From assembly GCA_964474895.1 (NCBI GenBank), contig CAYYUK010000001.1, forward strand, positions 92,684 to 156,683: DNA of 64,000 bases, written 5' to 3'. Position 1 is the stretch's first letter. Each line of letters begins with the position of its first letter. The stretch is from Candidatus Woesearchaeota archaeon (lineage in GTDB: Archaea; Nanobdellota; Nanobdellia; SCGC-AAA011-G17; PNOQ01). Positions 38,511-60,100 of this stretch are shown piece by piece. A program made the position numbers and the translations under genes. The notes under the pieces are model-generated. The model saw only the letters and a program-made list of their open reading frames with translations. It did not search any database and had not been told where the DNA came from.

Positions 38511-38553
38511 AAGCACAAATTTTAAATACTCTTATTTCAACTTAGGGATAATA

Positions 38554-39093: not shown

Positions 39094-39668
39094 TGGCTTT
39101 AGATTTTAGGTCTCTTTTTCTTGAAATGCAGATGTCTGGCTTTTATGAATATGTTTTACCTTTTTTGATTGTGTTTATTGTAATCTTTGCAGTTTTAGAG
39201 AAAACTTATATTCTGGGTTCAGAAAAAGATAAAAATGGAGAAAGAGTTCCACGAACAAATCTTAATGCCCTTCTTGGTGTTATTTTGGGGTTAGTTTTGT
39301 TGTTGCAACCAGATATAAGATTAGTTGAATATATGAACCTTTATTTATCTAAAATGTCGTTCTTTATTGTATTGGCTGTTATGGCGATGCTTGTAATTGC
39401 CCTGTTTGCTGGGAAAGATGAAGATGGTAAAATGTTTTCTGGCTTTGGTATGCTTTTTGCAGTCATAGTTGCTATTGGTGCTGTTTTGTGGTCCTTGAAT
39501 TCCTCATATGGGGGATATGGGTGGACTTCTTTACCCTATTGGGTTACAGATGAGATTCTTAGTCTTATACTCTTTGTTGTGATAGTTGGCGTAATTATAG
39601 CTACAGTTACTAAGAAAGCATCCAAAGAGGGAAGGGGGGAGAAATTTACTCTTAGGAGTGCACACTAA
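39093..39668 (+). CDS. Paralogous multipass membrane protein 2 of 3
   Basis: YEYVLPFLIVFIVIFAVLEKTYILG. taATGg overlap with the upstream gene. Confidence 0.5.
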   Translation: MALDFRSLFLEMQMSGFYEYVLPFLIVFIVIFAVLEKTYILGSEKDKNGERVPRTNLNALLGVILGLVLLLQPDIRLVEYMNLYLSKMSFFIVLAVMAMLVIALFAGKDEDGKMFSGFGMLFAVIVAIGAVLWSLNSSYGGYGWTSLPYWVTDEILSLILFVVIVGVIIATVTKKASKEGRGEKFTLRSAH

Positions 39669-40168
39669 TGGCAACTTTTTTGGATATTGGGTTGCTTGAA
39701 TATTTTTTACCTCTCTTTAGTTTTGTTTTGATTCTTGTTTTGGTTTATGCTATTTTGCAAAAGACCAAGCTATTAGGTGGTAAAGGTTGGATTGATGTTA
39801 CTGTAGCAGTCATAGTTTCTTTAGTTGCCATGTTTTCGGGATCAGTTTTTGATTTTACAAATATAGTGGTTCCTTGGTTTGTCATTCTGATGGTTGCTGT
39901 TGTGATGTTTGGTTTGGTTGCTTCTTTTTCTTTTGGAAGCGATATAGCAGATATACCAATTTTTAAGTCCCTTGCACTTTGGTTACCTTTGATAATTATA
40001 GTTTGGTCTATTACTGTCGTTTTTGGTCCGGTGTTTACTCCTTATTCTCCTGGGGCTAATTCTGAATGGGAAGCAATGAGAACTCTTTTCCATCCACGTG
40101 TTTTAGGGGCAATAGTTATGATTTTGGTTGTACTTTTTACTACAAAAGTTGTTGTCGAGAATACGTAA
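39668..40168 (+). CDS. Paralogous multipass membrane protein 3 of 3
   Basis: LEYFLPLFSFVLILVLVYAILQKTKLLG. The start overlaps the upstream stop. Confidence 0.5.
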   Translation: MATFLDIGLLEYFLPLFSFVLILVLVYAILQKTKLLGGKGWIDVTVAVIVSLVAMFSGSVFDFTNIVVPWFVILMVAVVMFGLVASFSFGSDIADIPIFKSLALWLPLIIIVWSITVVFGPVFTPYSPGANSEWEAMRTLFHPRVLGAIVMILVVLFTTKVVVENT

Positions 40169-41183: not shown

Positions 41184-43493
41184 ATGATGGGAACTGGAGA
41201 TAGTTTGAAACCTGGTGAGTACGAGCTTATTAGGGAAGGAAAGCAAGAAGTTATGAAAATTAATTTTATTGGTGTTCCTTATTCTCCATCCATTGAAGAT
41301 GATAAGATTACTATGGCGATGGTTGTTGATCGGCTAATTGAAGTTCCAAGCGTTAGCAGAATAATTCTTTCAGCAGATAGAAACTACCAATATGGTATTG
41401 ATCAGATTCAGATGCTAAGGGAGATTGCTAACATTTATATTTATTTAACAAGACAGAAAGGAGTTCTATCTCTTTCATCTTTGGGTACTAGTATGGAATA
41501 TGCCCAAATGTATCCTTCTAGATTTTCAGATATACAATATATTGTCAACAATCTTTTGAAAGGAGATCCAATAGGTGCTTATGTTGAACTTAAGAGAATA
41601 ATGAGGGAACAAAAAATAAGATTAAAAAATGCTAAAGGTCCCTTTGCGGTCCGAGATGAAACCGCATATTTTAAATCACTGACTGAAATTTTTGAGGTTG
41701 TCAATAAGTCTACTTTGATTTCTCAATTGAAGTCTGAATTGGATGGGCATGTTTTGGGTGATAGATCTATTTATTCTAGATCTTTTAGACCAATGATATC
41801 TCCTAATTTTATGTTTACCAGATTAATGGCAAGAGTTCCTGTAGATTCTGATGAAATAGATAATTATTCATTGAATGATGGATCTCAAATAATGATTTTT
41901 GAGCCTTCAGATGGTGTGAATATATTGTACCATTTAGCTCCTCCGGAATTTAATTTACCCGAAGATCATGTTTGGCTTTTGGATCTTGCAAGGGTTGTTA
42001 TGTCCGAACACAAGCCAACTACTGCAGAATTTACAGATCCTATTAGAATAAGACAAACTTTTCTTAATATTGGTAAAGATCTTCTTAATGAGTTGGCAGC
42101 AAGTAAAGGAATCGCATTAAGCTATGAAGAGTCTGGGAAACTCGCTGAAATTTTAATTAGATATACTATTGGTTTTGGATTGATTGAGGTTTTACTTTCT
42201 GATCCAAAGGTACAAGATATTTCAGTAAATGCTCCGATCGGCGAAGCACCAATTTTTATTGTTCATCAAGATTATGGTGAATGTCTAACAAACATAACAC
42301 CTAGTTCAGACGATGGTGAAAGTTGGGCTACCAAATTTAGGATAATGTCTGGTAGGCCTCTTGACGAAGCTAATCCTGTTTTAGATACTGAACTAGTTCT
42401 TTCTAAATTTAGGGCAAGAGTGTCTATTATTACAAGCCCCCTAAATCCTGTTGGTATTGCTTATGCGTTTAGAAGACATAGAGAGAAACCATGGACATTG
42501 CCTTTATTTATAGATAACAATATGATAAGTTCCCTTGGGGCGGGTTTGTTGAGTTTTTTGATTGATGGTTCTAGAACTCTTTTGATTGCAGGTACAAGAA
42601 GTAGTGGTAAAACTTCTTTATTGGGATCCTGTTTGGTTGAGATAATGAGAAAATATAGAATTATTACTGTTGAAGATACATTAGAACTTCCAGTTAGTTC
42701 TATGAGGGGGCTTGGATATAATATTCAACCAATGAAAGTTAGATCTGCTTTGGCTGCAGGAGGTACAGAGTTACCTGCTGAAGAAGGAATAAGAACAAGT
42801 TTAAGATTGGGGGATAGCAGTTTAATTGTTGGTGAGGTAAGAAGTAAAGAAGCTCTTGCATTATATGAGGCAATGAGGGTTGGTGCTTTGGCTAATGTTG
42901 TTGCAGGCACAATTCACGGTGGTAGCCCTTATTCTGTTTTCGATAGGGTTGTGAATGATTTGGGTGTGCCCAAAACTAGTTTCAAGGCCACAGATATAAT
43001 TGTTGTTGCGAATCCAGTTAAGTCTCCTGATGGACTGCATAAGATTAGAAGAGTTACGAGTATAACTGAAGTTAGGAAGGAATGGGAGAACGATCCTTTG
43101 GCAGAAGGAGCGTTTGTTGATCTCATGGTTTATAATCATAAAACAGATCAGCTTGAACCTACAGATAGTTTAATTAATGGAGATTCTGAAATTATAAAAT
43201 CTATTGCAGGTAGTGTAAAAGAGTGGGCAGGAAATTGGGATGCTGCATGGGAGAATATTTTGTTAAGGGCGAAAATAAAAGAAACCCTAGTCGATGTTGC
43301 TAATAAAATAGAGCGGAAGGATTTGCTAGAGGCAGAATTTTCAACAAAAGCGAATGATGTATTTCATAAGCTTTCGGATGAAGTTTTAACTAACTTTGGC
43401 GTTTTAGACAGCGAGAAAATCTTTTTTAGGTGGAATGAATGGTTTAAGAAAGAGATAAAAAAAGAGGTGCCTAATGTCGATATCGAAAGATGA
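41184..43493 (+). CDS. Type IV pilus/archaellum-family assembly ATPase (FlaI/TadA/VirB11-like) with a long N-terminal extension
   Basis: Walker A AGTRSSGKTS. Walker B and Asp box (TVEDTLEL). His box (GTIHGGS). 769 aa. Confidence 0.8.
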   Translation: MMGTGDSLKPGEYELIREGKQEVMKINFIGVPYSPSIEDDKITMAMVVDRLIEVPSVSRIILSADRNYQYGIDQIQMLREIANIYIYLTRQKGVLSLSSLGTSMEYAQMYPSRFSDIQYIVNNLLKGDPIGAYVELKRIMREQKIRLKNAKGPFAVRDETAYFKSLTEIFEVVNKSTLISQLKSELDGHVLGDRSIYSRSFRPMISPNFMFTRLMARVPVDSDEIDNYSLNDGSQIMIFEPSDGVNILYHLAPPEFNLPEDHVWLLDLARVVMSEHKPTTAEFTDPIRIRQTFLNIGKDLLNELAASKGIALSYEESGKLAEILIRYTIGFGLIEVLLSDPKVQDISVNAPIGEAPIFIVHQDYGECLTNITPSSDDGESWATKFRIMSGRPLDEANPVLDTELVLSKFRARVSIITSPLNPVGIAYAFRRHREKPWTLPLFIDNNMISSLGAGLLSFLIDGSRTLLIAGTRSSGKTSLLGSCLVEIMRKYRIITVEDTLELPVSSMRGLGYNIQPMKVRSALAAGGTELPAEEGIRTSLRLGDSSLIVGEVRSKEALALYEAMRVGALANVVAGTIHGGSPYSVFDRVVNDLGVPKTSFKATDIIVVANPVKSPDGLHKIRRVTSITEVRKEWENDPLAEGAFVDLMVYNHKTDQLEPTDSLINGDSEIIKSIAGSVKEWAGNWDAAWENILLRAKIKETLVDVANKIERKDLLEAEFSTKANDVFHKLSDEVLTNFGVLDSEKIFFRWNEWFKKEIKKEVPNVDIER

Positions 43494-45612
43494 GATAGAT
43501 AAAATATTGAAGAAATATCAATCCAGATTGAATAAACAGATGGGTTCTACTGATGTTAAAAACTATCAGCCTAGCTCTGAATTTTCTAGAGAATATACAA
43601 AATTTAAGGAAGAAGCTATGCCTAAACGTTTGAGTGTATATGAAAAACTGTGTAATTTTTCTGAGACAGTAATAAAGGTTAAACCTTCTGACAAGGATGT
43701 AGGACCTTTGCAGGAAAGCATAAGAATTGCTCATTTGAATTTGACTCCAACTGGTGCAGCCAGTTTTTCTTTGTTGTTTGTTTCGTTAGTTGTTTTATTT
43801 TCTTTGTTTGCTGGAGGAGCGTCTTATTTTGTTTCTGGATTCAAAAGTTTTGGAGGACTTCTTTCTGCAATTATTGTTTCGCTAGTTGCAATTTTGTTAA
43901 TTAAACCAATTACAAGATATCCAATTAATATTGCAACCAAATGGAGATTAAAGGCAAGTGATCAAATGGTTCTATGTGTTTTGTATATGGTAATTTATAT
44001 GAGGCACACTTCTAATTTTGAAAATGCAATTAAATTTGCTTCCGAACATGTTGGAGAACCCCTTTCTTTAGATCTTAGGAAAATATTTTGGGATGTTGAA
44101 ACTGGAAAGTATCCTACCTTGAAAGAGTCTTTGGAAACTTATCTCAAATATTGGAGAAAATACAATCTTGAATTCGTTAATGCCATGCATCTTTTGGAAA
44201 GTAGTTTGTATGAACCAAGCGAAGAAAGGAGATTAAGTTTGCTTGACAAATCCTTGGAAGTTATTCTCGAGGGTACATATGATCGGATGTTGAAATATGC
44301 TCATGATTTGCAGAGTCCAATTACGATGTTGCATATGTTGGGTGTTATTTTGCCTATTTTGGGTTTAGTTATCTTTCCACTTATAGGAACTTTTCTTGGT
44401 GGTGTTAAATGGTATTATCTTGCAATTGTGTATAACATTGCTTTACCGTTGATTGTTTATAATGTTGGAGTTAATCTTTTGAATAAAAGGCCTGCAGGTT
44501 ATGGGGAAACTAAATTAGACATCGCTCCTAAAAAAGGAGTTTTAGCAGTTGCTTGGTTTATTTTCCTTGCATTTTTGATTATTGGATTGTTACCTTTCAT
44601 AATTCATTTTATTTCTCCAGGTTTTGATGTTTCTTTATATGGTGATCCAGCAACTGGGGAGAAACTGTTGGATTTTGAGTTGGCAGGAGATAAATATTAT
44701 GGTCCTTTTGGTATGGGTGCTTTAATATTAAGTTTCTTTATTCCTCTTGGATTAGCTTTGTCTCTTTCGATGTATTACAAATCCAAATCTAAAATTGGAA
44801 AGAAGATTAGAGATGAAACTAAAAGGTTAGAAAGCGAATTTTCAACAGGAATCTTTCAATTAGGAACTAGAATTGGTGATGGTGTGCCATCTGAAGTTGC
44901 TTTTGATGATGTTTCGAAAACATTGGAAGGCACGCCTGTTGGCAAATTTTTTAGAATGGTCCATACTAATTTGAGTACTGCTGGAATGAGTTTAAAGAAT
45001 GCAATTTTCAGTAGGGAAAGGGGAGCAATAAAGGATTATCCAAGCCCATTGGTTAAAAGTTCAATGGAAGTTTTAGTTGAAAGCTCTAGGAAAGGTCCAA
45101 AAGTTGTTTCACAATCTTTGTTGAGTATTTCTACTTATGTAAATAATGTTAAGAGAATAAATGAAAGACTGAAAGATCTTCTTGCCGAGATTATTTCTAG
45201 CATGAAGAGTCAAATTAATTTCATGGCCCCTGTTATTGCGGGTATTGTTGTTGGAATAGCGAGTATGATTGTTGGTATAATTTCTAAATTGGGATATATG
45301 TTACAGCAAGTTAATTCCGGTGGCACTGATTTTTCTGTTGATATTGTTAATCTAAGTAGTTTGTTTCAGAAAACTCAAACAATTCCAAGTTATTTTTTCC
45401 AGTTAATTGTTGGGATTTATATCGTTCAGATAATTTATATTTTGACAATTATTTCGAATGGTATAGAACATGGAGCAGATAAATTAAATGAACAGTATAG
45501 TTTGAGTAAGAATTTAAAGAGGGGCTTTTTGTTGTACTTTGTTATTGCAGTTGTTGTTGTTATTCTCTTTAATATGATTGCAGGATCTGTTTTGAGTTCA
45601 ACTCAAATTTAG
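43474..45612 (+). CDS. FlaJ/TadC-like polytopic membrane platform protein
   Basis: 712 aa. Nine to ten TM helices in two blocks with a cytoplasmic domain, as in FlaJ/PilC. Overlaps the ATPase gene by 20 nt. Confidence 0.75.
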   Translation: MSISKDEIDKILKKYQSRLNKQMGSTDVKNYQPSSEFSREYTKFKEEAMPKRLSVYEKLCNFSETVIKVKPSDKDVGPLQESIRIAHLNLTPTGAASFSLLFVSLVVLFSLFAGGASYFVSGFKSFGGLLSAIIVSLVAILLIKPITRYPINIATKWRLKASDQMVLCVLYMVIYMRHTSNFENAIKFASEHVGEPLSLDLRKIFWDVETGKYPTLKESLETYLKYWRKYNLEFVNAMHLLESSLYEPSEERRLSLLDKSLEVILEGTYDRMLKYAHDLQSPITMLHMLGVILPILGLVIFPLIGTFLGGVKWYYLAIVYNIALPLIVYNVGVNLLNKRPAGYGETKLDIAPKKGVLAVAWFIFLAFLIIGLLPFIIHFISPGFDVSLYGDPATGEKLLDFELAGDKYYGPFGMGALILSFFIPLGLALSLSMYYKSKSKIGKKIRDETKRLESEFSTGIFQLGTRIGDGVPSEVAFDDVSKTLEGTPVGKFFRMVHTNLSTAGMSLKNAIFSRERGAIKDYPSPLVKSSMEVLVESSRKGPKVVSQSLLSISTYVNNVKRINERLKDLLAEIISSMKSQINFMAPVIAGIVVGIASMIVGIISKLGYMLQQVNSGGTDFSVDIVNLSSLFQKTQTIPSYFFQLIVGIYIVQIIYILTIISNGIEHGADKLNEQYSLSKNLKRGFLLYFVIAVVVVILFNMIAGSVLSSTQI

Positions 45613-45648
45613 AAATTATTATAAGTTGTAGAATTGAGGGAATTGAAT

Positions 45649-45768
45649 ATGGGAAAGAAAGGTGAGCTAGGTACTTATTTGAAGTATATCTTTATTATAC
45701 TTATAGTGCTTCTGATGATTTATTTGTTTTATAAATCTGTTATGGGGAGGATTGGTAGTTTTGGATAA
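45649..45768 (+). CDS. 39-aa pilin-like peptide (class III signal-like KKGE then hydrophobic helix), below the track cutoff
   Basis: Hand translation gives MGKKGELGTYLKYIFIILIVLLMIYLFYKSVMGRIGSFG. Confidence 0.3.
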   Translation: MGKKGELGTYLKYIFIILIVLLMIYLFYKSVMGRIGSFG

Positions 45769-46573
45769 AAAAGGTTCTACGCTTAAAGTAATTGTATTTG
45801 CGATTATTGCATTAGTTCTGGGGGGGATATTGTATGCTATTGTTGTAAGCTATTTTTCAATAGGTGGAGATAGTGTCGATAGAGAACTGTGCAAAGATAG
45901 TGTTTTGTTACAAGCGAGATCAAAGGTGATCGGTACACCACTTATTGAAGATTTGAGGTGTGGAACAAATGGAATTGAAATAGATGACTTGGATGAGAAT
46001 GAAATTTATTCTGAAATTGCGGGAGAGATGTATGATTGCTGGAAGCAGTTTGGAAAGGGAGATATTGATTTTTTAGATGATCGTGATTGGGGAACTGGAA
46101 ATAATTGGTGCTTTATTTGTTCTAGAATTGATTTTGATGAAAGTGTTCAAGAAAAATATCCTGAAATTGATGGGTTATTTACGTATCTTAAAGATGAGCC
46201 ATTGCCTTTGAAACCCGATGAAACCTTTTTTACTTATATTTATGGAGATGTTTCTGAAGATATAGATCCACAAGAGTTCGATTATCCTTACCCCACTACA
46301 GGGCCCTTTTATGTTGTATTTTTTGGAGATAAGAGGTTTGAAATTTTGGCTTCTGAGTCAAGGGATTTGGTTTCAATAGTTTCTGAGATAGGCGGTTCGA
46401 TTTGGGTAGGGGCGAAAATTGGTTTGAAGTTTGGAAAGGCAGCTGGAGTAAAGGGTGCAATTATTGGGAGTATTGCAGGAGTAGTTCTTCATTATTCTAG
46501 TACGAAAACAGGATATGTTAGTGGATTGTATGTTGGACCTTCTGCTGAAATGATAGAAAGGTGTAGGCAATGA
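45752..46573 (+). CDS. Pilin-like protein (DKKGSTLK then hydrophobic helix). TTG start per the ORF track.
   Basis: N-terminal class III signal-like segment. The remainder is acidic and beta-rich. Confidence 0.45.
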   Translation: MVVLDKKGSTLKVIVFAIIALVLGGILYAIVVSYFSIGGDSVDRELCKDSVLLQARSKVIGTPLIEDLRCGTNGIEIDDLDENEIYSEIAGEMYDCWKQFGKGDIDFLDDRDWGTGNNWCFICSRIDFDESVQEKYPEIDGLFTYLKDEPLPLKPDETFFTYIYGDVSEDIDPQEFDYPYPTTGPFYVVFFGDKRFEILASESRDLVSIVSEIGGSIWVGAKIGLKFGKAAGVKGAIIGSIAGVVLHYSSTKTGYVSGLYVGPSAEMIERCRQ

Positions 46574-46711
46574 AAAGGGGAGAGATTGTTTGGGATAAGT
46601 TAGGGAAGTGGATTTTATTATTAGTACTTTTGATCATTTTATTGATGTTGGCTTATACACAAAAAGAGAATTTCATAAATGCACTTGAGAGTTTGAAAAC
46701 TGCTTTGAGGT

Positions 46712-47335
46712 TTGGAGGCTAAGATGCGAATAGCCATGCCACATATAATTGCAGCAGTTTTAGTAATACTTATTGTGGTAGTTGTTTTATTTTTTACTAC
46801 TCCTGTTTTTAATAAACTTAAAGAGCAGATTGGATTTGGTACTGATTTGAGTGCTGAAGAGACACAGGCACAAATAAAAGCCAGGGAAATCTTTGTTGAT
46901 GGAGTTTATCCTATTTTGGATGATTGTTCAAAAAGTAGGAATGTTAGTTGTTTTTGTACTGATGAAAAGTTTGAATTTCCGACTAGTTACACATTAGATA
47001 TTTATGATGATGGTGGAATGAGGGTCGAACTGATCAATCATTTGGGTGGAAGTGTTGAGGATCGTTTATTATCGGATATTAAGCCTTGTATTGGTTGGAA
47101 AGTTGGTTTTGATTTGTCTGGATTCGGTTATGTTCAGGACGGTAAAGTTACTCTGAGATATAACTATGCTCCTTCTCCTTTGATTGAGTTTTTTGATTTG
47201 GGTGAAGATAAGTTCATAAGTAAACCTTTTGATTTGAGTTACGTTTTCTATAAGCCACGGGAAGGGCATATTTGTGTTTTGACGGAAGAATATGCTTCAG
47301 CTAAGAGGGTTGTTGGTGGGGGTATCTGTGAGTAG
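46712..47335 (+). CDS. Pilin-like or pilus-associated protein
   Basis: N-terminal hydrophobic helix (IIAAVLVILIVVVVLFF). Cys-containing extracellular domain. Confidence 0.4.
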   Translation: MEAKMRIAMPHIIAAVLVILIVVVVLFFTTPVFNKLKEQIGFGTDLSAEETQAQIKAREIFVDGVYPILDDCSKSRNVSCFCTDEKFEFPTSYTLDIYDDGGMRVELINHLGGSVEDRLLSDIKPCIGWKVGFDLSGFGYVQDGKVTLRYNYAPSPLIEFFDLGEDKFISKPFDLSYVFYKPREGHICVLTEEYASAKRVVGGGICE

Positions 47336-47390
47336 TAATCAAAAGATTTAAATAATAAGAATTAAGATTATCAAATAGAGGTGAAGATAT

Positions 47391-47774
47391 TTGAAAAATA
47401 AGAAAGGTCAAACGCTTTCAATTAATACTGTCATTATTACTATTCTTGCTATTTTTGTTTTAGTTCTGATTGTTGTTGCACTTACAGGGGGATTTGGTAA
47501 TTTTGTCGATTGGTGGAACAATGTTTTTACTGGTAGCGGAATAGATAGTCAGAAAGCAGCCTTGCAATGTAATGGGTTCTGTGAGTCTTATCAAACAACA
47601 GGGAGTGTCCAATTTGCTGAGAATTATTGTACCAAAGAGTTCAATATTGATAGTGACGGCGATAATAAAGGAGATATTACTTTGATTTGCCCCGATATAG
47701 TCACTGTTTCGTGTTCAGTCATTGATGACTATGAATCTGATGTAGGCGAGATTGGCTGTGAAGCTTTCTCTTAG
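47391..47774 (+). CDS. Type IV pilin (class III signal peptide)
   Basis: MKNKKGQ then TLSINTVIITILAIFVLVLIVVALTGG. Confidence 0.6.
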   Translation: MKNKKGQTLSINTVIITILAIFVLVLIVVALTGGFGNFVDWWNNVFTGSGIDSQKAALQCNGFCESYQTTGSVQFAENYCTKEFNIDSDGDNKGDITLICPDIVTVSCSVIDDYESDVGEIGCEAFS

Positions 47775-47777
47775 AAA

Positions 47778-47963
47778 ATGCTTGGTAAGAAAGGACAGGG
47801 ATTATCAATAGAAACAATTATCATTTTAGTGATTGCTGTCCTTGTTTTGGTTGCTGTTATTTTAATCTTTAGTGGGCAGGCTGGTGAAATCTTCCAATCT
47901 GTTCAGGATTTTATTTCTGGAATAACTACACCAACTGTTGATGTTTCGGAGGCAGTGCAATGA
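47778..47963 (+). CDS. Short type IV pilin (61 aa)
   Basis: MLGKKGQ then GLSIETIIILVIAVLVLVAVILIFSG. Confidence 0.55.
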   Translation: MLGKKGQGLSIETIIILVIAVLVLVAVILIFSGQAGEIFQSVQDFISGITTPTVDVSEAVQ

Positions 47964-48472
47964 ACAAAAAAGGTGAGTTAGCTTTTATGATTAAGATTGC
48001 TATTGGTTTAACTATAGGTATAGTTTTGATTCTTTTTAGTATGACTTTTTGGAAGGTTATTGTTGGACTTCTTTTCCCAGAGATGTCTGTTTTAACGGAG
48101 AACACAATGGAGGAGCTATCTGAAGCAATAATTAGATTAGAGGGTGGAGATAATACCACCGTTCTTTTTTATATGTCTGGTGATTTTGTTTTAGTTGCAT
48201 TTGATAAGAGTAAATCTTTTGGTTCGGGGAGTTTGGGTTATTATGAGAGACCAGTATCTTGTTTTGACTCTTCCTGTTTGGTTGTTTGCAGAGATTCTGA
48301 TTCTGGAAGCGCATGTAAGAATTCTGATCTTTTATATTTGTTTGAATTTGATAACTTTGATTTAGAAAATCCTGATACTGGAATTATTTCAGTTGTTAAG
48401 GGAAAATATGTTGAATTTTATGTTGAGAAAAAAAGTAATTCTGTTACAATTAGGGAAACTAATGAAAACTAA
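47960..48472 (+). CDS. Type IV pilin-like protein
   Basis: MNKKGE then LAFMIKIAIGLTIGIVLILF. Start overlaps the upstream stop. Confidence 0.55.
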   Translation: MNKKGELAFMIKIAIGLTIGIVLILFSMTFWKVIVGLLFPEMSVLTENTMEELSEAIIRLEGGDNTTVLFYMSGDFVLVAFDKSKSFGSGSLGYYERPVSCFDSSCLVVCRDSDSGSACKNSDLLYLFEFDNFDLENPDTGIISVVKGKYVEFYVEKKSNSVTIRETNEN

Positions 48473-48499
48473 TTTAAATAAGGAAATTAATTTTTTAGT

Positions 48500-48889
48500 A
48501 TGGTTTCTAAAGTAGGAATTTGGATAGGATATACTGTCGTAGCTGTTGCGGCTTTTTTAACTGTCTTTGTTATTATGGATAAAATGACGGATGATACCTC
48601 TTTTGAGCAAAGATTTATTTCTAAAGACTTGATTATACTAGAGGACAGTGCCCTCTCCGCCCCATATAATTTAAATGTCGCATATTCTTTTGATGATTCT
48701 TATGAAGTTTTTTTCGGGGAGAAATGTTCTTTGACGATTAACAAAAGAGAAACTCCTCTGTATTCAGGTAGCATTAACTATTGTGCTGCAGATATTAATT
48801 TTGAAGTCATATATTCAGATATATTAGATTCCGGGTTAGTAATTTTTGATAAAAAAGAGAATGTTTTTGAGGTGAAAGTTAGTGAATAA
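48500..48889 (+). CDS. Pilin-like protein
   Basis: MVSKVG then IWIGYTVVAVAAFLTVFVIM. Confidence 0.4.
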   Translation: MVSKVGIWIGYTVVAVAAFLTVFVIMDKMTDDTSFEQRFISKDLIILEDSALSAPYNLNVAYSFDDSYEVFFGEKCSLTINKRETPLYSGSINYCAADINFEVIYSDILDSGLVIFDKKENVFEVKVSE

Positions 48890-49382
48890 AAAGGGTGACT
48901 ATACTATTGGCAAAGAATCTCTAAAGATGATAGTCTATCTTATGCTGATTACAGTTGTTAGTTTTATTATAATCTCCATTTTTGGGGTTTCGATTGTAAA
49001 AGACATTAGAACTAGTGAACTAGAACAGCATGTCGCAGTTACAAGAATGTTATCTTCTAGCAATTGTTTAGCATATTCTGGAGAAGAAAGAGTGTTTTCT
49101 GGAATTATAGATTTGAATAAATTTAGCGAAGAACGTGTACAGAACTGTTTTAGTTACAAAGAGAGAGAGGGACAAGGACTACTGCTTAGTCTGTATGATT
49201 TTAATGATAATCTGTTAGGAGAAGTTGAAACCAATAAGATACTCGTTGCGCAAGTTCCAACTTGTGGTTTGGATAAATCTGATTATGATTGTTATTTTAC
49301 TAGGAAGTATATTCTTTATGACGATGGTGGAGAAATGAAAAAGGGTTTTTTGGATTTTACGGTGGTGACCAAACTTGAATAA
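48882..49382 (+). CDS. Type IV pilin-like protein
   Basis: MNKKGDYTIGKESLK then MIVYLMLITVVSFIIISIFG. Confidence 0.5.
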   Translation: MNKKGDYTIGKESLKMIVYLMLITVVSFIIISIFGVSIVKDIRTSELEQHVAVTRMLSSSNCLAYSGEERVFSGIIDLNKFSEERVQNCFSYKEREGQGLLLSLYDFNDNLLGEVETNKILVAQVPTCGLDKSDYDCYFTRKYILYDDGGEMKKGFLDFTVVTKLE

Positions 49383-49860
49383 GAATGGAATAATAGTTCT
49401 AGCTGATATCAACTTTATTATTCTTACCGTTTTACTTTTAGTTGCTTATATAATCTTGCTGGTTCAGTTTGATATTGCAAATTTTGGTGATAAGAATCAA
49501 ATAATTGAGTTAGATGATGGTTTGAAATCTTCCGAAAATGAGTATCTTGTTTTAAATTACCTAAATACAGAAGTTAATGAGTTTACGTTTGCAGATATGA
49601 TTTATTCTTGGAAAAATGGTGGTTCTGTTGTGTGGTCAGAGATTGAGTCTGAAACCGAAATCTTATTTTCAAAAGTTTATGGGAACTGTTATGAGTTTGA
49701 AATAGACGGGAATAATATAAATGCTGTAATTTTTAATAGTGACTCTGCTAGTTGTATTGATTTTTCTGTTGATTTGAATGAAGTTGTTGAAATTTGTATT
49801 GATATTAGCGAATATGATAATAAATTTGAAAATTACAAAGAGGAGGAATGCTTTGTATGA
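49375..49860 (+). CDS. Type IV pilin-like protein
   Basis: MNKNG then IIVLADINFIILTVLLLVAYIILLV. Confidence 0.5.
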   Translation: MNKNGIIVLADINFIILTVLLLVAYIILLVQFDIANFGDKNQIIELDDGLKSSENEYLVLNYLNTEVNEFTFADMIYSWKNGGSVVWSEIESETEILFSKVYGNCYEFEIDGNNINAVIFNSDSASCIDFSVDLNEVVEICIDISEYDNKFENYKEEECFV

Positions 49861-50576
49861 ATAGAAAAGGTGTTTTAAGTGCATATGTATTTGTTTTTAC
49901 ATTTATGGCCATAGGTCTTGCTCTGTTTTTGATAACACAGATAGGGGATGATGTTGTTAATGCTTTAGGCAGATCACAGTCTGAATTATTGGATACTTAT
50001 GTTGGTGCTGAAGTTGATTTGTTTAACGATGGGAGATTGATAGAATATGTTTGGAAGGATTCTCTGATTGGGTTGGGAAAAACTGGTGGGGTTGATACTA
50101 GTTCTATTGGGGAATATAGCTATTGGAAAAGAGGGGGTGAAAGTTGTTTTCCCGATTTAGAAGAATTAGAGAGTAAGTTGGCTGAAATTATTGTTTTGAA
50201 AACTGAAGGAGATTATGTTTTGGATGTGGATAGTTCTAATGTTGTAATTACATATGATAAAGAGTATGTGGGTGGTGCCGATAATACCAGTTTTACTTAT
50301 TATTTTAATCCAGTTGTTGAAATTGGGTTTGATTATGATTTGAATGAGTTTTTGGATGCTATACAAACTGTTGAAATCATTGTTTCTGAATGCGGAGATG
50401 ATATTGCCTGTTGGGATACTAAGGATGTATCATATTCAGTGGATGATAATAATGTTTTTAAGGTAGATGTTGTTTCTGGAATCGTTAAAGATATTCTTGG
50501 GGAAGAAGTGGTGATTGTTAAGGGGGCTATAGATTTTGACTATAATCCTCTTCAAGATGGTGAATTCGAATGTTGA
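49848..50576 (+). CDS. Pilin-like protein
   Basis: MNRKG then VLSAYVFVFTFMAIGLALFLI. Acidic extracellular domain. Confidence 0.45.
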   Translation: MLCMNRKGVLSAYVFVFTFMAIGLALFLITQIGDDVVNALGRSQSELLDTYVGAEVDLFNDGRLIEYVWKDSLIGLGKTGGVDTSSIGEYSYWKRGGESCFPDLEELESKLAEIIVLKTEGDYVLDVDSSNVVITYDKEYVGGADNTSFTYYFNPVVEIGFDYDLNEFLDAIQTVEIIVSECGDDIACWDTKDVSYSVDDNNVFKVDVVSGIVKDILGEEVVIVKGAIDFDYNPLQDGEFEC

Positions 50577-54260: not shown

Positions 54261-54539
54261 ATGGGAAATGCAGTTGTAACTATGAAGATAATGCCTGATA
54301 ATCCTGAAGTGGATTTAATCAAAGTGGAAGAAGAAGCTAAGAAGATTATATCTGGTTTTGTTGGTGAAGGCGAAATGAAAGTTTCTCAAGAACCAGTTGC
54401 TTTTGGTCTGAAAGCTTTAGATATTATTTTTGTTATGGATGAAAATTCTGGTAGCCCAGATCCTATTGCTGAAAAAGTTTCTGAATTGGATGGTGTTAAT
54501 TCTGCAGAGATTTCAGATGTTAGAAGAGCAATTGGTTAG
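54261..54539 (+). CDS. ef1b: Translation elongation factor aEF-1 beta
   Basis: 92 aa. VTMKIMPDNPEVDL...EPVAFGLKAL pattern of archaeal EF1B. Confidence 0.85.
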   Translation: MGNAVVTMKIMPDNPEVDLIKVEEEAKKIISGFVGEGEMKVSQEPVAFGLKALDIIFVMDENSGSPDPIAEKVSELDGVNSAEISDVRRAIG

Positions 54540-55408
54540 ATAAATAATAAGAAAATATTTCCATAAATTAAACTTATAATTGTTGCTATTAAAAATACAG
54601 GTATGAAAACTATACCTTCTTTTACTACTACTTCTTTTTTATGTTTCTTTATTATTTCAATTTGTTTATTAGTTACTCCTGTGCTTTTTGGTGAGTAAAT
54701 TGTTTTTCCATCTATTATTATCTTTTTTGTAATCCAATCTCCTTCCCTAAGGTTACTTGTTTGCATTTTTTTATACATAGATGTTTTTTCTATTGCCTTT
54801 GTTATTGTTAGTAAATAGTTTGTAATTAATGGAATTGCAAATATTGTTGAAAAGATTATGCGTAGCTCTAGTTCTTTCACTGCAATAAAACTTATTAGTA
54901 TTCCAACTAATAGGAGAATTAGTAAAACTTTGTTTAATTGTTTCTTTTTTTGCTTTATTTTTTTGAATTCCTTTGAGAAAGAATTTCTGTGTTTTATTAT
55001 GAGAAAAACTGTCCAAAACAATCCATAGACTGAACCAACTATTATCAAATTTATTAGAATTGTAACTGGAAGATTTATTGTTAATTCTGAATTGAAAAAG
55101 TTTCTTAGTAATGATGGATAAACTGGTAGGATTGCCCCAATTCCAATTAATAGTTTTGCATCCCCCCCGCCCCATTGTTTTGTGTAATACATTATGTTTC
55201 CAATAATCAGGAAAATTCCAACATAAAGTAGGCTGTGAAGTATTGGCCAATAACTTTGTTCTAAAATTGATTTTGTTGCGAATATTGCCAAACCAATCGC
55301 AATTAAGCTGAAGTTTAACCAGTCTGGAACTTCTTTTGTTTTTATGTCTGAGATTGTTGCTGCTGTTAACCAAATTAGCACAACCCCAATAAGAATCCAG
55401 TCTATCAT
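54536..55408 (-). CDS. Type IV prepilin peptidase (PibD/FlaK-like A24 aspartyl protease) with an extra C-terminal membrane domain
   Basis: Two catalytic Asp motifs: ISDIKTKEVPDW and WGGGDAKLLIGIG. Polytopic membrane protein. The 54771..55373 track ORF is an overlapping spurious frame. Confidence 0.7.
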   Translation of the reverse strand: MIDWILIGVVLIWLTAATISDIKTKEVPDWLNFSLIAIGLAIFATKSILEQSYWPILHSLLYVGIFLIIGNIMYYTKQWGGGDAKLLIGIGAILPVYPSLLRNFFNSELTINLPVTILINLIIVGSVYGLFWTVFLIIKHRNSFSKEFKKIKQKKKQLNKVLLILLLVGILISFIAVKELELRIIFSTIFAIPLITNYLLTITKAIEKTSMYKKMQTSNLREGDWITKKIIIDGKTIYSPKSTGVTNKQIEIIKKHKKEVVVKEGIVFIPVFLIATIISLIYGNIFLLFI

Positions 55409-55447
55409 GATAAGATTTAAATACCTGATTTTATAAACTTTGTTAGG

Positions 55448-55855
55448 ATGTTAAACAAGAAAGAAATTTTGGTTATTGCAAGGGCAGCTTATGATTCTTT
55501 TTCTAGACTACATAAAATTGATGTTAGAATTAGATTAATTAGTTCTAAGGCTTTTTGGAAGCTTGCCAAGAAAAGTAGTTTGGTTAGGGATAAGATAAAG
55601 AAAAATATTCCTATTGCCATTGGTGCTCTTGTTGTGCATTCTTCTATTGATACAGTTTATGTTAGCAAGGATGTCATAAATTCGATAACTGATGATCCAA
55701 AATTTATTAAAGCAATCTTTTTGCATGAATTTTATCATATTTATTTTAAATCTCAAATGAAAGATAATAAATTTAAAAGTTCATTAGAATCTGAAGATAG
55801 GGCAAAGAGCGCTATGAAAAAGGATTTTCCAATATTATCTAAATATCTTGTTTGA
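55448..55855 (+). CDS. Small HExxH protein, possible SprT/WLM-like zinc metallopeptidase
   Basis: KAIFLHEFYHIYF is an HExxH motif in a 135-aa protein. The N-terminal region loosely resembles SprT-like domains. Confidence 0.35.
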   Translation: MLNKKEILVIARAAYDSFSRLHKIDVRIRLISSKAFWKLAKKSSLVRDKIKKNIPIAIGALVVHSSIDTVYVSKDVINSITDDPKFIKAIFLHEFYHIYFKSQMKDNKFKSSLESEDRAKSAMKKDFPILSKYLV

Positions 55856-55893
55856 CAGAAAACCTTTTAAATTTAGTTCCGGTTATTTTTCCC

Positions 55894-57033
55894 ATGATGA
55901 ATAAGAAAGCAAGTAATCCGGTTTCTACGTTAATAATCATAATTGGTGTTTTAATTGTGTTGTATGTCTTAATCATGCCTCCTTGTGATAAGTGTGAATT
56001 GTTGAAAACAGATTGTCCTTCATATTGCGAGGATGAAGGAGCTTCAGAAGATATTTTATTGTCTGTTGAGCCTGGAGAGGTTTCTTTGGCAGATAGGAGA
56101 ACATATGATTTAGGATCTATGAATCTCTATTCCCATTCTGAACCAAATATAGATGAACTTGCAGAGTCATTGAGTGTTAGCAAAGGTTGGTTTGGAACTA
56201 TTAATCAAGATTTGGTTTTTAATATAGATAGTTTTAGTGATTTAGATTCTGTTGAACTTTCTTTTGTTGTTGTTGATTCTAGGGGAGATTTAAAGGTTTA
56301 TTTGAATGATAGGCAAATTTTTTCAGATAGTGCTTCTTCTGGTAGAACTGTTGAAATAGAATTGCCTGTTTCTTATTTAGAAGAAGTTAATGATTTAAGG
56401 TTGGAATCTGAAATGCCAGGATTGGCTTTTTGGGCAAGAAATTATTATGACCTAAGAGACATAGAAATTTTACAATATTATGAGATAGTTCATTCTAGTG
56501 AAGAAAAATCTTTTTTTATGGGCGATTCTGAGTTTGATTCTCTTGAAGCTGCAGAGTTGGAGTTTACAATATATTGTTCTTCTTTAGATGGGGATACTGG
56601 ATTCAAAATTTATTTGAATAATGAATTAGTTAGATCTGATAATATTGGTTGTATTAGGGATGATATTTCTTTTAGTATTGACACTAGTTATTTTGAACAA
56701 GGAACTAATGAGGTAAAATTTTTAGTTGATAACGGTAACTTTTTGTTGAGTGGTGTTGAAATGAAAGTTTGGTTTGATGAAACTGTTTATCCTTCTTATG
56801 AATTTGATGTTGATGAAAAGTTTGGAAATGAGTTTGAATTGTACATGAAATTTGGTTCTTCTGGAGATAAGAATGGAGATATTTATCTTAATGGAGATAC
56901 GATAGTTTTAGATACTGGTTCGAATACGTTTAGGGAAGATATTACAGATCATGTTGTCGTTGGTACAAATTATTTAGAAATCAGACCAGATAATGAGTTT
57001 GAAATAGATAAATTAAAAGTTTCAATTGTATAA
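55894..57033 (+). CDS. Secreted or surface protein with three internal YLN-motif repeats
   Basis: N-terminal MMNKKAS then PVSTLIIIIGVLIVLYVLI (signal or pilin-like). Repeats DLKVYLNDRQIFSD, GFKIYLNNELVRSD, GDIYLNGDTIVLDTG. ATG 55894 is preferred over the TTG at 55852. Confidence 0.5.
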   Translation: MMNKKASNPVSTLIIIIGVLIVLYVLIMPPCDKCELLKTDCPSYCEDEGASEDILLSVEPGEVSLADRRTYDLGSMNLYSHSEPNIDELAESLSVSKGWFGTINQDLVFNIDSFSDLDSVELSFVVVDSRGDLKVYLNDRQIFSDSASSGRTVEIELPVSYLEEVNDLRLESEMPGLAFWARNYYDLRDIEILQYYEIVHSSEEKSFFMGDSEFDSLEAAELEFTIYCSSLDGDTGFKIYLNNELVRSDNIGCIRDDISFSIDTSYFEQGTNEVKFLVDNGNFLLSGVEMKVWFDETVYPSYEFDVDEKFGNEFELYMKFGSSGDKNGDIYLNGDTIVLDTGSNTFREDITDHVVVGTNYLEIRPDNEFEIDKLKVSIV

Positions 57034-57046
57034 AGGGGTGTAAATT

Positions 57047-58231
57047 TTGGCAGAATATGAAGAAAGAGAATTGGCAGAATATGAAGAAAGAGAATTTTCT
57101 TTAAGAACTGGGCTTGGTTGGGTCGTGAAGGTTTTTATAGTTCTTGTGTTAGTTGGGGGTATTTTTATTGGGGCGGTTTTTGCATGGAATTTTGTCAGTT
57201 CTGGTTTAGCCGGTTCTGCTTATGAAAAATTGTCTGTTGGAATTCAGGAACAAACTCCTACTAATCCTTTTTTGAAAGCTTGGCATTATATAACTAATCC
57301 CGCGGATCTCAATACCTATGATTCTGTTGTTGAAGTTAATGAGGAAAATGAAGATTTGGGCGTTAAAATTACTGACCTTGAAAGTACAAAACCCTTTTTC
57401 TTTGAAGATGAAGGCATTGTTGTTAGGGGGATGGTTGAAGCTGCAGCTATCACTGGAGGGGGTTCTATTGTTTCTTTGGATTGTATGATCAGAGGGTATG
57501 AGAACGAAGCAACTGTTGATCCTACCGAAATTGAAGTTATTGGTAATGGGATTGTTCAACATGAAAATGTTCTTTGTTCTTTTGAGCCTGGAAATAATAT
57601 AGATAGTGATGTTGGAATAAGGAGGATTGAATTAGGTGCCACATCCGAACTTTATACAATAGCTACTTATGATGTCTTTGTGATTAAAGATGAAGAATAT
57701 AATCGTATTAAGTATGAATTAGGATTGGATCCTTTTATTGAAATTTTGGGTGGAAAGCCAGATTTGCTTGGTCCAGGAAATATAATGAGATCGAGAACAA
57801 TTCCAAGTCCTATGAAATTAAGTATTTCTACTCAGACAGAGCAGCCATTTAAATCTGAAGATAGCATTTTTTTATTAGTTAGTTTGGATGAAATCTGGGA
57901 AAATGGAGAGTGGCTAAGAATTGATAGTTTAAAGATCACTGTTCCAAGCACCATAATTGAACCAAGAGATGATCCTAACAGTTGTGATTTTGTGTTTACT
58001 GGTGAATACGATGGGGAGTATAAAATTTATGAGGTTTCTGAAGAAGTTTTGAGTAGAATAAACAGTGTTGGTGAGTCTGGCGAATATAGTGTTGTTTTTC
58101 AATGTGCCATGGATGTAGGATCTCTTTTGTCTGATGAAGATATCTTTCAGAGCTCCATTATTGCGGAAGCGAGCTATGTTTACAAAGTAGAAAAGGCTAC
58201 TACTGTAGATATCAGGAAGAGTAGTGTTTAG
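57047..58231 (+). CDS. Signal-anchored acidic surface protein. TTG start. The N-terminus carries a 24-bp tandem duplication (AEYEEREL x2).
   Basis: No in-frame ATG upstream of the TM helix. GGGGTG SD-like sequence 8 nt upstream of TTG 57047. TM is VVKVFIVLVLVGGIFIGAVFAW. Confidence 0.45.
   Translation: MAEYEERELAEYEEREFSLRTGLGWVVKVFIVLVLVGGIFIGAVFAWNFVSSGLAGSAYEKLSVGIQEQTPTNPFLKAWHYITNPADLNTYDSVVEVNEENEDLGVKITDLESTKPFFFEDEGIVVRGMVEAAAITGGGSIVSLDCMIRGYENEATVDPTEIEVIGNGIVQHENVLCSFEPGNNIDSDVGIRRIELGATSELYTIATYDVFVIKDEEYNRIKYELGLDPFIEILGGKPDLLGPGNIMRSRTIPSPMKLSISTQTEQPFKSEDSIFLLVSLDEIWENGEWLRIDSLKITVPSTIIEPRDDPNSCDFVFTGEYDGEYKIYEVSEEVLSRINSVGESGEYSVVFQCAMDVGSLLSDEDIFQSSIIAEASYVYKVEKATTVDIRKSSV
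57049..57096. repeat. Perfect 24-bp tandem duplication (ggcagaatatgaagaaagagaatt x2) at the 5' end of a surface-protein gene
   Basis: Direct read of positions 57049-57072 and 57073-57096. Confidence 0.85.
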
Positions 58232-58260
58232 AAAGATTTTTATATAATCCTCTTTAGGAT

Positions 58261-59184
58261 TTGTTTATTATGAGAGGTGTTTTAGTATTATTACTTTTGG
58301 TAGTGGTTTTGTTAGTTTCTTCTTGTCAACAAGGAACTCAATCTACAAATGTTGGGGGGATTGATATAGAATTTATTGAAAATCAACCTCCTGTTACTTT
58401 GAGAGAAGATGCTTCATTCACTGTTGGACTTTATTTAAAGAATAATTTACCAAAAGCCGTTCAAAATATAGAAGTTTGTGTTCAAGATTCTTTTAGGGAT
58501 GGTAATGGGGGCATATTTGGTGAAGAGTGCAAATCTGTTGATATTTCTGCTGCAGATGTTAGTGGAGATACAATTTCTCCAGAGATAGAACAAGTTTATT
58601 TTCCAATTGGTGAGGGTGGTTATGTCTATGATAATTTAGGTATCGGTATTGATAGTGTTGTTGTGCTTGTTGACATCTCCTACTTTTTGAATACTATTTC
58701 TACTGTTAGTGATTTTTGTTTGAAAGAGGATCCAGGTTATGAGGTTGAAGAAATGGATTGTGATCCCAATAAAATTTTTACTGGTAGTGATATAAGAAAT
58801 CAGATAGCTCCAATTATTGTGGATAGGGTAAAAACTAGTGTGGTTAATGAAGGTTATCAAAATAGGGTTTATTCTGAAATCTATTTTAAGAAGGCCGTTG
58901 GTGGAGAAGTTTTACAATCTGATTTTTATTCTGGTGAGGATTCTACAATGCCGTTAGTTGGGTACTCAATTACTCTTGCTTCTGGAGAGGTTTTTGAATG
59001 TGACTCTGACGAAGAAGGATTCCTTGTTTTTGATGATCTTGTTGAAGTACTTGAATGTAATGCTCCTGTGGTTCTTAGTAGTGAGTGGGAAAATAGTGCA
59101 ATTAATATAGAGTTGTCTTATAATTACGGTATTGGTGCAAATCGTGAAATATCTTTTAAAAAAAGTGGGGAGGAATTAATTTAA
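58261..59184 (+). CDS. Lipoprotein-like surface protein (CARDB/DUF11-like beta-sandwich segments)
   Basis: Signal peptide LLLLVVVLLVSSC (lipobox-like). FTVGLYLKNNLPKAV motif. Multiple Cys. Confidence 0.5.
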   Translation: MFIMRGVLVLLLLVVVLLVSSCQQGTQSTNVGGIDIEFIENQPPVTLREDASFTVGLYLKNNLPKAVQNIEVCVQDSFRDGNGGIFGEECKSVDISAADVSGDTISPEIEQVYFPIGEGGYVYDNLGIGIDSVVVLVDISYFLNTISTVSDFCLKEDPGYEVEEMDCDPNKIFTGSDIRNQIAPIIVDRVKTSVVNEGYQNRVYSEIYFKKAVGGEVLQSDFYSGEDSTMPLVGYSITLASGEVFECDSDEEGFLVFDDLVEVLECNAPVVLSSEWENSAINIELSYNYGIGANREISFKKSGEELI

Positions 59185-59185
59185 A

Positions 59186-60100
59186 ATGAAAAAAATAATA
59201 TTTGTTCTTTTGCTGGCAACGATGTTCATATCTGCTTGTAGTAGCGATGGAGATGTTGTTGTAAGTGAAGGACCGTTTGTTGGAGGTTCAGAAGGTGTTG
59301 CAGTTTCTTTTGTTGAGGGCGCGCCGTTTGGAGAGTTTGTTGCTGGGCAAGATATTCCTATTAAATTGTTGTTGAAGAATAGTGGGGAGTATGATCTTGC
59401 TGGAGGAAGTATTGAAGCAAAATTGTTCGGAGTTCATATGCCTTCTTTTAGTTTGGATGCAGGTTGGAGTATAGTGAATTCTCCACTTATAGGTGTCAAG
59501 AAAGGATTCTTAGAAGAGGGTTCTGAAAAGATAGTTGATATGGGTGTTTTAAATTATGTTGCTGAAATAAATAATCCAATAGAAACTACATTGTACTCTA
59601 AAATATGTTATCCCTATAGAACTAGTGCAAGTGTTAATATTTGTGTTAGCTCTAAAGAAATTGAGGATTCTGGAGGAGAAGTTGTTTGTGATATAGCTGA
59701 AGATAAACTTGTTGAGGGCGGAGTTTCTAGTGGTCCTGTTCAGTTGACTAGTTTTTCTGAAGAATTTGAGGGTGTAAATAGACTGGCTTTTAAGTTGACT
59801 TTTGAAAATCAGGGTGTTGGCCAGGTTTTCGGCAAGAATATTTCTTGTGAGAACATAGATACTGTCGAAGGAAATCTTGAGGAAGATAAGGTTTATTTAA
59901 CTATGCCAGAAGACATAACTTGTTTCTTTGTAGAGGGAGAGGAATCCAATGAAGGGTATATTAGAGTTGGTGGAAATACGGTTACTTGTCATATGGATGT
60001 AGAGAATACTGGGTCAACCTATGAAAGAAACATAAACATTTTTGCAGATTATAGATACATTGAAAGCACATCTGTCGATTTGACAATTTTAGAGGTTTAG
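59186..60100 (+). CDS. Lipoprotein-like surface protein, paralogue-like of 58261..59184
   Basis: Signal LLLATMFISAC. IPIKLLLKNSGEYDL, LTFENQGVG and MDVENTGSTYERN motifs, as in CARDB-type domains. Confidence 0.5.
   Translation: MKKIIFVLLLATMFISACSSDGDVVVSEGPFVGGSEGVAVSFVEGAPFGEFVAGQDIPIKLLLKNSGEYDLAGGSIEAKLFGVHMPSFSLDAGWSIVNSPLIGVKKGFLEEGSEKIVDMGVLNYVAEINNPIETTLYSKICYPYRTSASVNICVSSKEIEDSGGEVVCDIAEDKLVEGGVSSGPVQLTSFSEEFEGVNRLAFKLTFENQGVGQVFGKNISCENIDTVEGNLEEDKVYLTMPEDITCFFVEGEESNEGYIRVGGNTVTCHMDVENTGSTYERNINIFADYRYIESTSVDLTILEV

Follow-up and report, generated by a model that had tools for sequence, protein, structure and literature searches.

A conserved four-gene block encoding predicted surface proteins beside a prepilin peptidase gene in a Woesearchaeota archaeon

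Gene content of the locus

The DNA considered here, called the window throughout, is a stretch of 64,000 nucleotides from contig CAYYUK010000001.1 (assembly GCA_964474895.1) of a Candidatus Woesearchaeota archaeon, and positions refer to this stretch unless another locus is named. An A24 prepilin peptidase gene on the minus strand (54536..55408) is followed, after a divergent intergenic region of 39 nt (55409..55447), by five plus-strand genes. The first is an open reading frame (ORF) for a 135-residue protein with an HExxH motif (55448..55855). The other four encode larger proteins with the marks of the cell surface, designated p393 (55894..57033), p394 (57047..58231), p307 (58270..59184) and p304 (59186..60100). 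A previous sequence-only reading had listed the same six ORFs, all of which were recovered at its coordinates, and had interpreted the five plus-strand genes as a single surface module whose maturation by the peptidase and by the HExxH protein might be coordinated. The following sections examine how far the genes belong together, what their products resemble and which role they may share.

Conservation of the four-gene block

All related loci whose context is long enough, some 25 from Woesearchaeota and Nanoarchaeia, keep the order p393-p394-p307-p304, and some of them hold two p307-like copies. This conservation is far above chance and confined to DPANN archaea. It persists at 27-32% identity in loci L010, L034 and L037, where the flanks differ: L034 and L037 have Pelota upstream and RFC downstream, the latter being found downstream in L008 and L009 as well. 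In the last two loci, a gene for a polytopic protein of >924 residues comes first and three lipoprotein paralogs follow; the C-terminal domain of the polytopic protein is p394-like by position and by eye and lies below the threshold of the hidden Markov model. Four genes, rather than five, make up the functional unit. The notion of a conserved block thus holds for the four genes that are kept together and not for the HExxH gene, which lies outside this core.

Scans of the five plus-strand proteins against Pfam, NCBIfam, PADLOC and PHROGs returned nothing above cut-off, and PDB sequence searches with single sequences and family profiles (HExxH, p393, p394 and p307/p304) gave nothing significant. 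By sequence, the families p393, p394, p307, p304 and HExxH reach no Pfam or NCBIfam cut-off and their elements (class III signal, lipoboxes, jelly-roll and Ig-like domains, mini-zincin) are singly of known kinds; we know of no earlier description of the conserved four-gene combination. A viral origin of the block was considered and rejected on the basis of IMG/VR scans, in which no relatives of p304 and p393 were found, and of a BFVD fold search with p304, which yielded TM-scores of 0.24 or less only.

A prepilin-type protein with jelly-roll domains

The first member of the block, p393, combines a prepilin-type N-terminus with three jelly-roll domains. It counts 379 residues from the ATG at 55894. 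The alternative start TTG at 55852, which would give 393 residues, was judged less likely, since the ATG is the choice of the gene callers and is also backed by a TATA-like box. Its N-terminus reads MMNKKA↓SNPVSTLIIIIGVLIVLYVL (the arrow marks the predicted cleavage point) and leads into a hydrophobic helix, spanning residues 9-27 in the structural model. KK[A/G] is invariant in ten p393 orthologs. When the N-termini of the wider family were read by eye, down to about 30% identity, all 18 displayed [KR][GA], 3-8 polar residues and about 20 hydrophobic residues (for instance MFGKRG↓QSAVEVSVFIF and MKKKG↓AVPEG); a script recognized the same pattern in 16 of the 18. The pilin-like ORFs of the window itself follow this pattern too, as in MKNKKG↓QTLSINTVIITIL. 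The class III-like signal that had been proposed as a possibility for p393 is therefore conserved family-wide.

The three internal repeats with a YLN motif, first noticed by eye, proved to be real and homologous, with hhalign probabilities of 97% between the first and second, 74% between the second and third and 54% between the first and third. In the model, they form three tandem jelly-roll domains of the galactose-binding or carbohydrate-binding module (CBM) type. This reading agrees with several weak matches: profile scores below cut-off for Glyco_hydro_2_N2 (13.8 bits versus 27) and BcsB (10.7 versus 21), PDB sequence matches to glucuronidases and a precomputed PF02837 match in one ortholog (P0024). 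As modelled, p393 shares its fold type with the galactose-binding-like jelly rolls of GH2 sugar-binding domains, CBM6/35, the carbohydrate-binding domains of BcsB and PNGase F; it differs from them in that its scores stay under the family cut-offs and no catalytic domain is attached. Kinship of p393 with p394, p307 or p304 was rejected (hhalign <1%).

A CxxC...CxxxC stretch follows the membrane helix. The corresponding segment, PPCDKCELLxxDCPSYC (55981-56028), places four Cys directly past the helix and is restricted to the closer clade. More distant members have PPEDRxxLL, devoid of Cys, at the same position, and nearly all members have a Pro-Pro following the helix. In locus L016 (10001-11167), a p393 homolog stands alone between Pelota and PAC2 with p394, p307 and p304 not nearby, so that the prepilin-type protein need not, at least in its local context, be accompanied by the other three.

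Three tethered proteins related to one another

The second protein, p394, is a type II single-pass membrane protein with a charged acidic cytoplasmic tail of variable length, one transmembrane (TM) segment at about residues 17-37 and an acidic ectodomain of about 350 residues with four invariant Cys. The C-terminal domain of p307 and p304 probably has its homolog in the C-terminal half of p394, as suggested by profile comparison with the larger alignments (hhalign 75%, E 2.5e-5, 170 columns); smaller alignments gave 8-30% only. A Gly precedes the TM segment in several orthologs in a G↓F-like arrangement, and p394 was accordingly considered as a further prepilin. This was rejected because the leaders measure 18-80 residues, Lys or Arg follows the Gly, the strict prepilin motif is matched by 0 of 18 sequences and the distant homologs are polytopic.

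The p394 counterparts of distant Nanoarchaeia are enlarged to 704-924 residues or more and have gained a polytopic membrane region (L008 54-2828; L034 3825-5939; L037 3858-5975). In that of L008, the cytoplasmic N-terminus is moreover long and consists of coiled-coil or low-complexity sequence; these enlarged proteins match no Pfam family. A Cys-rich extension of about 70-130 residues prolongs the C-terminus of some p394 orthologs but not that of the window protein. This extension is seen in the alignment of L006 (7517-9004) and L014 (5225-6790) and inferred from a length of about 530 residues in L020 (5458-7056) and L021 (5443-7050).

The last two genes of the block encode proteins with lipobox-like signals. 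p307 has 304 residues from the ATG at 58270, a TTG at 58261 (307 residues) being judged the less likely start, and combines the lipobox LLVSS↓C with an ectodomain of two beta-sandwiches; p304 has the lipobox FISA↓C followed by two beta-sandwiches resembling Ig, macroglobulin (MG) and CARDB domains. Both display a basic n-region, a hydrophobic core and a conserved Cys. In a joint 24-member alignment of p307 and p304, conservation of the lipobox Cys is 90% or higher, and in all 18 p304 orthologs this Cys is invariant along with six further Cys (seven counting Cys18). A strict lipobox expression, [LVI][ASTVI][GAS]C, is matched by 18/26 and 20/28 sequences across the p307 and p304 families. Pairwise BLASTP barely links the two proteins (E 0.013), whereas profile comparison joins them over 280 columns (hhalign 99.9%, E 9e-37) and intermediate sequences also connect them; judged from these alignments, p307 and p304 are true paralogs. 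The earlier proposal of two paralogous proteins with lipobox-like signals (VSSC and ISAC) is thereby borne out.

The model of p304 is confident (pLDDT 81, pTM 0.78) and its predicted two-beta-sandwich fold finds generic matches only. CARDB/DUF11-like motifs had been suggested for both proteins. The suggestion stands as far as an Ig/CARDB-like beta-sandwich fold is concerned and fails at the level of families, for p307 and p304 match no CARDB or DUF11 profile. Beta-sandwiches of the CARDB, MG and cohesin types are among the closest known to the sandwich proteins of the window. Lipoproteins have been reported to be prevalent in DPANN (PMC12462473). The two paralogs resemble archaeal lipobox lipoproteins of the AliA/AliB pathway (PMC12462473) in their short basic n-region, hydrophobic core and lipobox Cys; they differ in their mature domains, which fall into none of the described families, and their lipidation is predicted. 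In locus L006 (9033-10004, GCA_964344655.1), the p307 ortholog is split into ORFs of 147 and 164 residues by a frameshift, as in a pseudogene, or by an assembly error.

Charge, sequon depletion and divergence

All four surface proteins are acidic, with isoelectric points (pI) of 4.05-4.22, and contain one hydrophobic segment apiece, located at the N-terminus. N-x-S/T sequons were counted in the window (55894-60100) and in the homologs from loci L006-L041. The four window proteins contain one sequon versus 9.4 expected (p = 0.001). Family-wide ratios of observed to expected sequons are 0.24, 0.36, 0.05 and 0.09, as computed from related sequences whose counts are not independent, and cytoplasmic neighbours in the same loci give 0.5-1.4. 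This depletion lends independent support to an extracytoplasmic location of the four proteins and suggests, from sequence composition, selection to stay unglycosylated. Their signal types, invariant Cys, acidity and sequon depletion uphold the view of four large proteins tethered to the membrane outside the cytoplasm. The pilin-like ORFs of the window are sequon-poor as well (3 versus 8.1 expected).

Divergence along the block is mosaic. When the window is compared with L011 and L017, identity is 33-34% for p394 and 49-52% for p307, versus 68-75% for p393 and p304 and 80-97% for housekeeping genes. L011 and L017 themselves share 70% identity in p394 and 83% in p307. The contrast is centred on window positions 57047-59184 (L011 11153-13182; L017 5964-7999) and its pattern suggests that the p394-p307 pair has either been replaced or evolved very fast, p394 being the fastest-evolving member of the block.

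The A24 prepilin peptidase

The peptidase gene (54536..55408, minus strand) encodes a 290-residue A24 prepilin, or class III signal, peptidase resembling FlaK and PibD. It scores 58.3 bits against Pfam Peptidase_A24 (PF01478, cut-off 26.5) and matches the FlaK structure 3S0X (E 1.7e-8), with whose catalytic Asp residues its own align. These are D21 (ISDIKTKEVPD) and D83 in GGGD (WGGGDAK), both kept in five orthologs aligned with the window protein. The protein has six TM-like segments, a soluble segment (about residues 203-258), in which a weak Arc_PepC match is located (E 0.0013), and a final TM segment at 259-290. All the features that had been attributed to this enzyme, namely a PibD/FlaK-type peptidase domain with both Asp motifs and an extra C-terminal part made of a soluble segment and a last TM, are thus present. 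The window peptidase is akin to FlaK, PibD and EppA in its A24 domain, its two catalytic Asp and its Arc_PepC-like C-terminal part. It differs from them in not being a FlaK ortholog by equivalog score: the FlaK equivalog NF040695 of NCBIfam gives 46.3 bits versus a cut-off of 330, far too low, and the enzyme is consequently ranked as an A24 member.

The HExxH mini-protein

The HExxH protein (55448..55855, plus strand) is basic (pI 9.9) and has no hydrophobic or TM segment and no signal peptide, from which a cytoplasmic location follows. It is a mini-zincin candidate with the motif HEFYH-x18-E. H93, E94, H97 and E116 are invariant in 19 family sequences that share 26-43% identity with the window protein, the only other invariant positions being F36 and P128. 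The invariant Glu lies 19 residues after the second His, a spacing that we take, by comparison with the M1 and thermolysin-type motifs, to be the gluzincin arrangement. The family is tiny: 22 representatives were retrieved among 1.84 billion clustered proteins, and one of them (P0042) was rejected as a tandem-repeat artefact.

Members of the family give sub-threshold Pfam matches only, mostly to zincins (SprT-like, phage metallopeptidase, M48, M76 and M90), the best having E values of 0.002-0.004 in 2-4 of the 19 members. The protein reaches no curated family cut-off (SprT-like, M48, WLM and others) and has no PDB sequence match. A SprT/WLM-like nature had been put forward with a question mark; weak SprT-like matches speak for it, and neither the SprT-like nor the WLM cut-off is reached. 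Minimal zincins have been described in the form of SprT/Wss1-like 'minigluzincins' with M48-type catalytic cores (PMC4559962). The window protein is similar to them in being small and soluble, in its invariant HExxH and Glu and in its weak SprT-like, M48 and M76 matches; it departs from them in the absence of any family cut-off or PDB match and in the small size of its family.

The HExxH gene is tied to the four-gene block in one sublineage only, and its distant homologs adjoin PAC2 or a Cys-rich secreted protein, away from p393. Given this distribution and the cytoplasmic location of the product, no role in trimming exported domains can be assigned to it. On sequence grounds, it is probably a separate cytoplasmic mini-metallopeptidase candidate and not a core member of the block. 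The scheme of a five-gene unit in which this protein acts as maturation protease finds no support, since the protein is cytoplasmic, its gene has its own TATA-like box and it occurs apart from the block in distant lineages.

Transcription signals

The exact TATA-like motif TTTAWATA is rare, with only 30 copies on both strands of the window. The divergent intergenic region contains two TATA-like boxes: TTTAAATA (55416-55423), an exact motif 32 nt before the ATG of the HExxH gene, and the self-complementary TTTATAAA (55430-55437), with one mismatch, 29 nt before the peptidase start. A box with one mismatch (55866-55873) lies 28-29 nt before the p393 ATG at 55894, and the exact motif TTTATATA (58239-58246) is located 31 nt before the p307 ATG at 58270. 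The spacing of these boxes supports the ATG starts. Upstream of p394 and p304 are found, instead of TATA-like boxes, purine-rich runs (GGGGTG and GGGGAGGA, respectively). This arrangement suggests leaderless units with separate promoters, predicted as [A24], [HExxH], [p393-p394] and [p307-p304].

Genomic context and the type IV filament locus

The window has a low G+C content (about 32%) and carries archaeal housekeeping genes for RPA, RadA, EF-1beta, eIF2alpha, L44e and GINS. The genomes of its nearest relatives are labelled Candidatus Woesearchaeota and one more remote genome is labelled Nanoarchaeia. Many metagenomes hold contigs identical to the window; contigs L001-L005, being 99.98-100% identical to it, are uninformative on microdiversity.

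A type IV filament locus occupies positions 41184..50576 on the plus strand. It comprises a T2SSE ATPase gene (41184-43493; PF00437, E 1.2e-14), a gene for a polytopic putative platform protein of 712 residues (43474-45612) and eight ORFs (45752-50576) with class III-like N-termini of the MNKKG type, read by eye. The peptidase gene had been placed about 4 kb from this pilus locus, and the measured gap from its end (50576) is 3.96 kb. Housekeeping genes lie between the pilus locus and the surface block. Among the Woesearchaeota loci, the closer ones have the peptidase and HExxH genes ahead of the block; in some of them (L025, L027, L029 and L033) one or two further genes are inserted.

Proposed function and alternative explanations

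The most likely interpretation of the four-gene block is a membrane-proximal surface assembly with an adhesive or glycan-binding role; taken as a whole and judged from sequence, we give this statement about an even chance of being right. It is favoured because of the conserved order of the block, the prepilin-type N-termini, the intact A24 peptidase encoded 39 nt from the cluster, the lipobox Cys and the paralogy of the members. Their acidity, the sequon depletion, the fast divergence of p394 and p307 and the precedents of lectin pilins and class III-signal proteins argue in the same direction. In such an assembly, the divergently encoded peptidase would cut p393 after the conserved [KR][GA]. 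The processed protein would keep its hydrophobic N-terminal helix and might either be retained in the membrane, in the manner of the Sulfolobus bindosome, or be loaded onto the nearby type IV filament, where it would represent a bulky 'modular pilin' with three jelly rolls of carbohydrate-binding type. p394, through its TM segment, and p307 and p304, lipid-anchored via their lipobox Cys, would add related two-beta-sandwich proteins near the membrane's outer face. The four proteins together would form an adhesive or glycan-binding assembly of which p394 and p307 may be the fast-evolving exposed face.

Precedents exist for both fates of p393. Modular type IV pilins with lectin and adhesion modules are known from Streptococcus sanguinis PilC and PilB (PMC9934059, PMC8179133). 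p393 is similar to these in its class III signal and hydrophobic helix followed by bulky beta-rich modules, in a fold of carbohydrate-binding type and in the vicinity of its gene to a prepilin peptidase and a filament locus. It differs in that no canonical pilin module is recognized and in having three jelly rolls instead of a ConA-like lectin and an Ig domain; it is moreover archaeal and encoded with three tethered proteins that are not pilins, and its incorporation into a filament is hypothetical. The sugar-binding proteins of the Sulfolobus bindosome carry class III signals (PMC3047682) and further archaeal binding proteins with such signals have been predicted (bioRxiv 10.64898/2026.04.22.720090). 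Like p393, as predicted, these are large proteins that form no filament, are processed by prepilin peptidase and are retained by their helix; p393 differs from the bindosome in its fold, which is not that of a solute-binding protein, and in having no adjacent ABC transporter genes.

Several observations weigh against the proposed assembly. A strict FlaFind-type motif, [KRDE][GA][ALIFQMVED][ILMVTAS]x3, is passed by only 4 of the 18 p393 family members; the window sequence KKASNP, with Ser at +1 and Asn at +2, fails it, as do several pilin-like ORFs of the window. The globular module of pilins was not recognized in p393, the Pro-Pro after its TM segment breaks the helix and its first beta domain is modelled at low confidence. 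No A24 or HExxH gene is within reach in the distant loci L010, L034 and L037, and in the closer loci RPA, RadA, EF-1beta, UDG, eIF2alpha, L44e and GINS are equally syntenic. The adjacency of the peptidase and HExxH genes is therefore indistinguishable from inherited gene order and constitutes weak evidence for coordination. A coordinated action of peptidase and cluster, formerly read from their proximity, loses much of its basis in a syntenic housekeeping stretch, all the more so as the block also occurs without a peptidase nearby.

The four proteins could alternatively build a structural envelope layer, either a proteinaceous coat or a pseudo-periplasmic scaffold substituting for an S-layer in an archaeon devoid of a classical one, with no specific binding role. 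In favour of such a layer, archaeal S-layers commonly contain Ig-like sandwiches, every relative examined carries the block amid housekeeping genes and the four proteins are Cys-rich, acidic and anchored by short linkers; we regard a purely structural layer as unlikely. An accessory subcomplex of the type IV filament is somewhat more doubtful. p394, p307 and p304 would here act as alignment proteins of the PilN/PilO/PilP type and p393 as a minor pilin, either a priming or a tip one. PilN and PilO are bitopic and PilP is a lipoprotein with a beta-sandwich, which are anchor kinds like those of the block; p393 bears a prepilin-type signal, and in this lineage the block is found 5 kb from the filament locus and beside the prepilin peptidase. 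However, no sequence match to PilN/O/P or to the archaeal FlaF/FlaG families was obtained, housekeeping genes intervene between block and pilus locus in the window, in distant loci neither an ATPase nor a platform gene is found up to 8-10 kb from the block and machine parts seldom diverge as quickly as p394.

A glycan-handling apparatus, in which a BcsB- or PNGase F-like p393 would guide or trim a polysaccharide or an N-glycan with the other three proteins as partners, is improbable: the matches concern single jelly-roll domains only, no catalytic residues were identified and genes for synthases, glycosyltransferases or hydrolases are absent in and beside the block in every locus. Least credible, and for the core block in our opinion very improbable, is that the peptidase and the five plus-strand genes are neighbours by inherited gene order alone and do no joint work. 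The syntenic flank (RPA, RadA, EF-1beta, UDG, eIF2alpha, L44e and Gins51), the fact that, in distant lineages, neither the HExxH gene nor the peptidase gene stays with the block and the TATA-like boxes, suggestive of separate transcription units, would all agree with it. Inherited order may well account for the HExxH gene and possibly for the peptidase gene, but not for the core, whose order survives changed flanks (Pelota and RFC; L034, L037 and L008) and of which three members are paralogous.

The adhesive or glycan-binding assembly can be extended into a more specific and rather speculative proposal, to which we attach a low probability. The block would be the attachment apparatus of Woesearchaeales-type DPANN episymbionts: p393, a prepilin-type lectin mounted on three tethered beta-sandwich paralogs, would read the glycans of partner cells, p394 and p307 would diversify rapidly to track hosts or evade viruses and the scarcity of sequons would avoid self-recognition. 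Woesearchaeota and their relatives are abundant and uncultured, have small genomes and are thought to live attached to other cells. A compact block of four uncharacterized surface families offers concrete candidates for attachment studies and makes predictions open to test: the neighbouring prepilin peptidase should cleave p393, two members should be lipid-anchored, the jelly rolls should bind glycans and the proteins should form a complex. Further leads on how Woesearchaeota cells present their surface come from the near absence of sequons and from the fast, mosaic evolution that two members show.

Additional observations

Two features outside the block deserve mention. In locus L016 (1154-3589), which belongs to a Woesearchaeota MAG, RadA is encoded by an ORF of 811 residues that matches the window RadA in two pieces, consistent with an insert such as an intein. 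Directly upstream of the pilus locus of the window (38476-40168, plus strand), three tandem ORFs of 205, 191 and 166 residues encode multi-pass membrane proteins that match no Pfam family; they are paralog-like and share the N-terminal motif LPFLLVFxVVFAVLEKTxILG.

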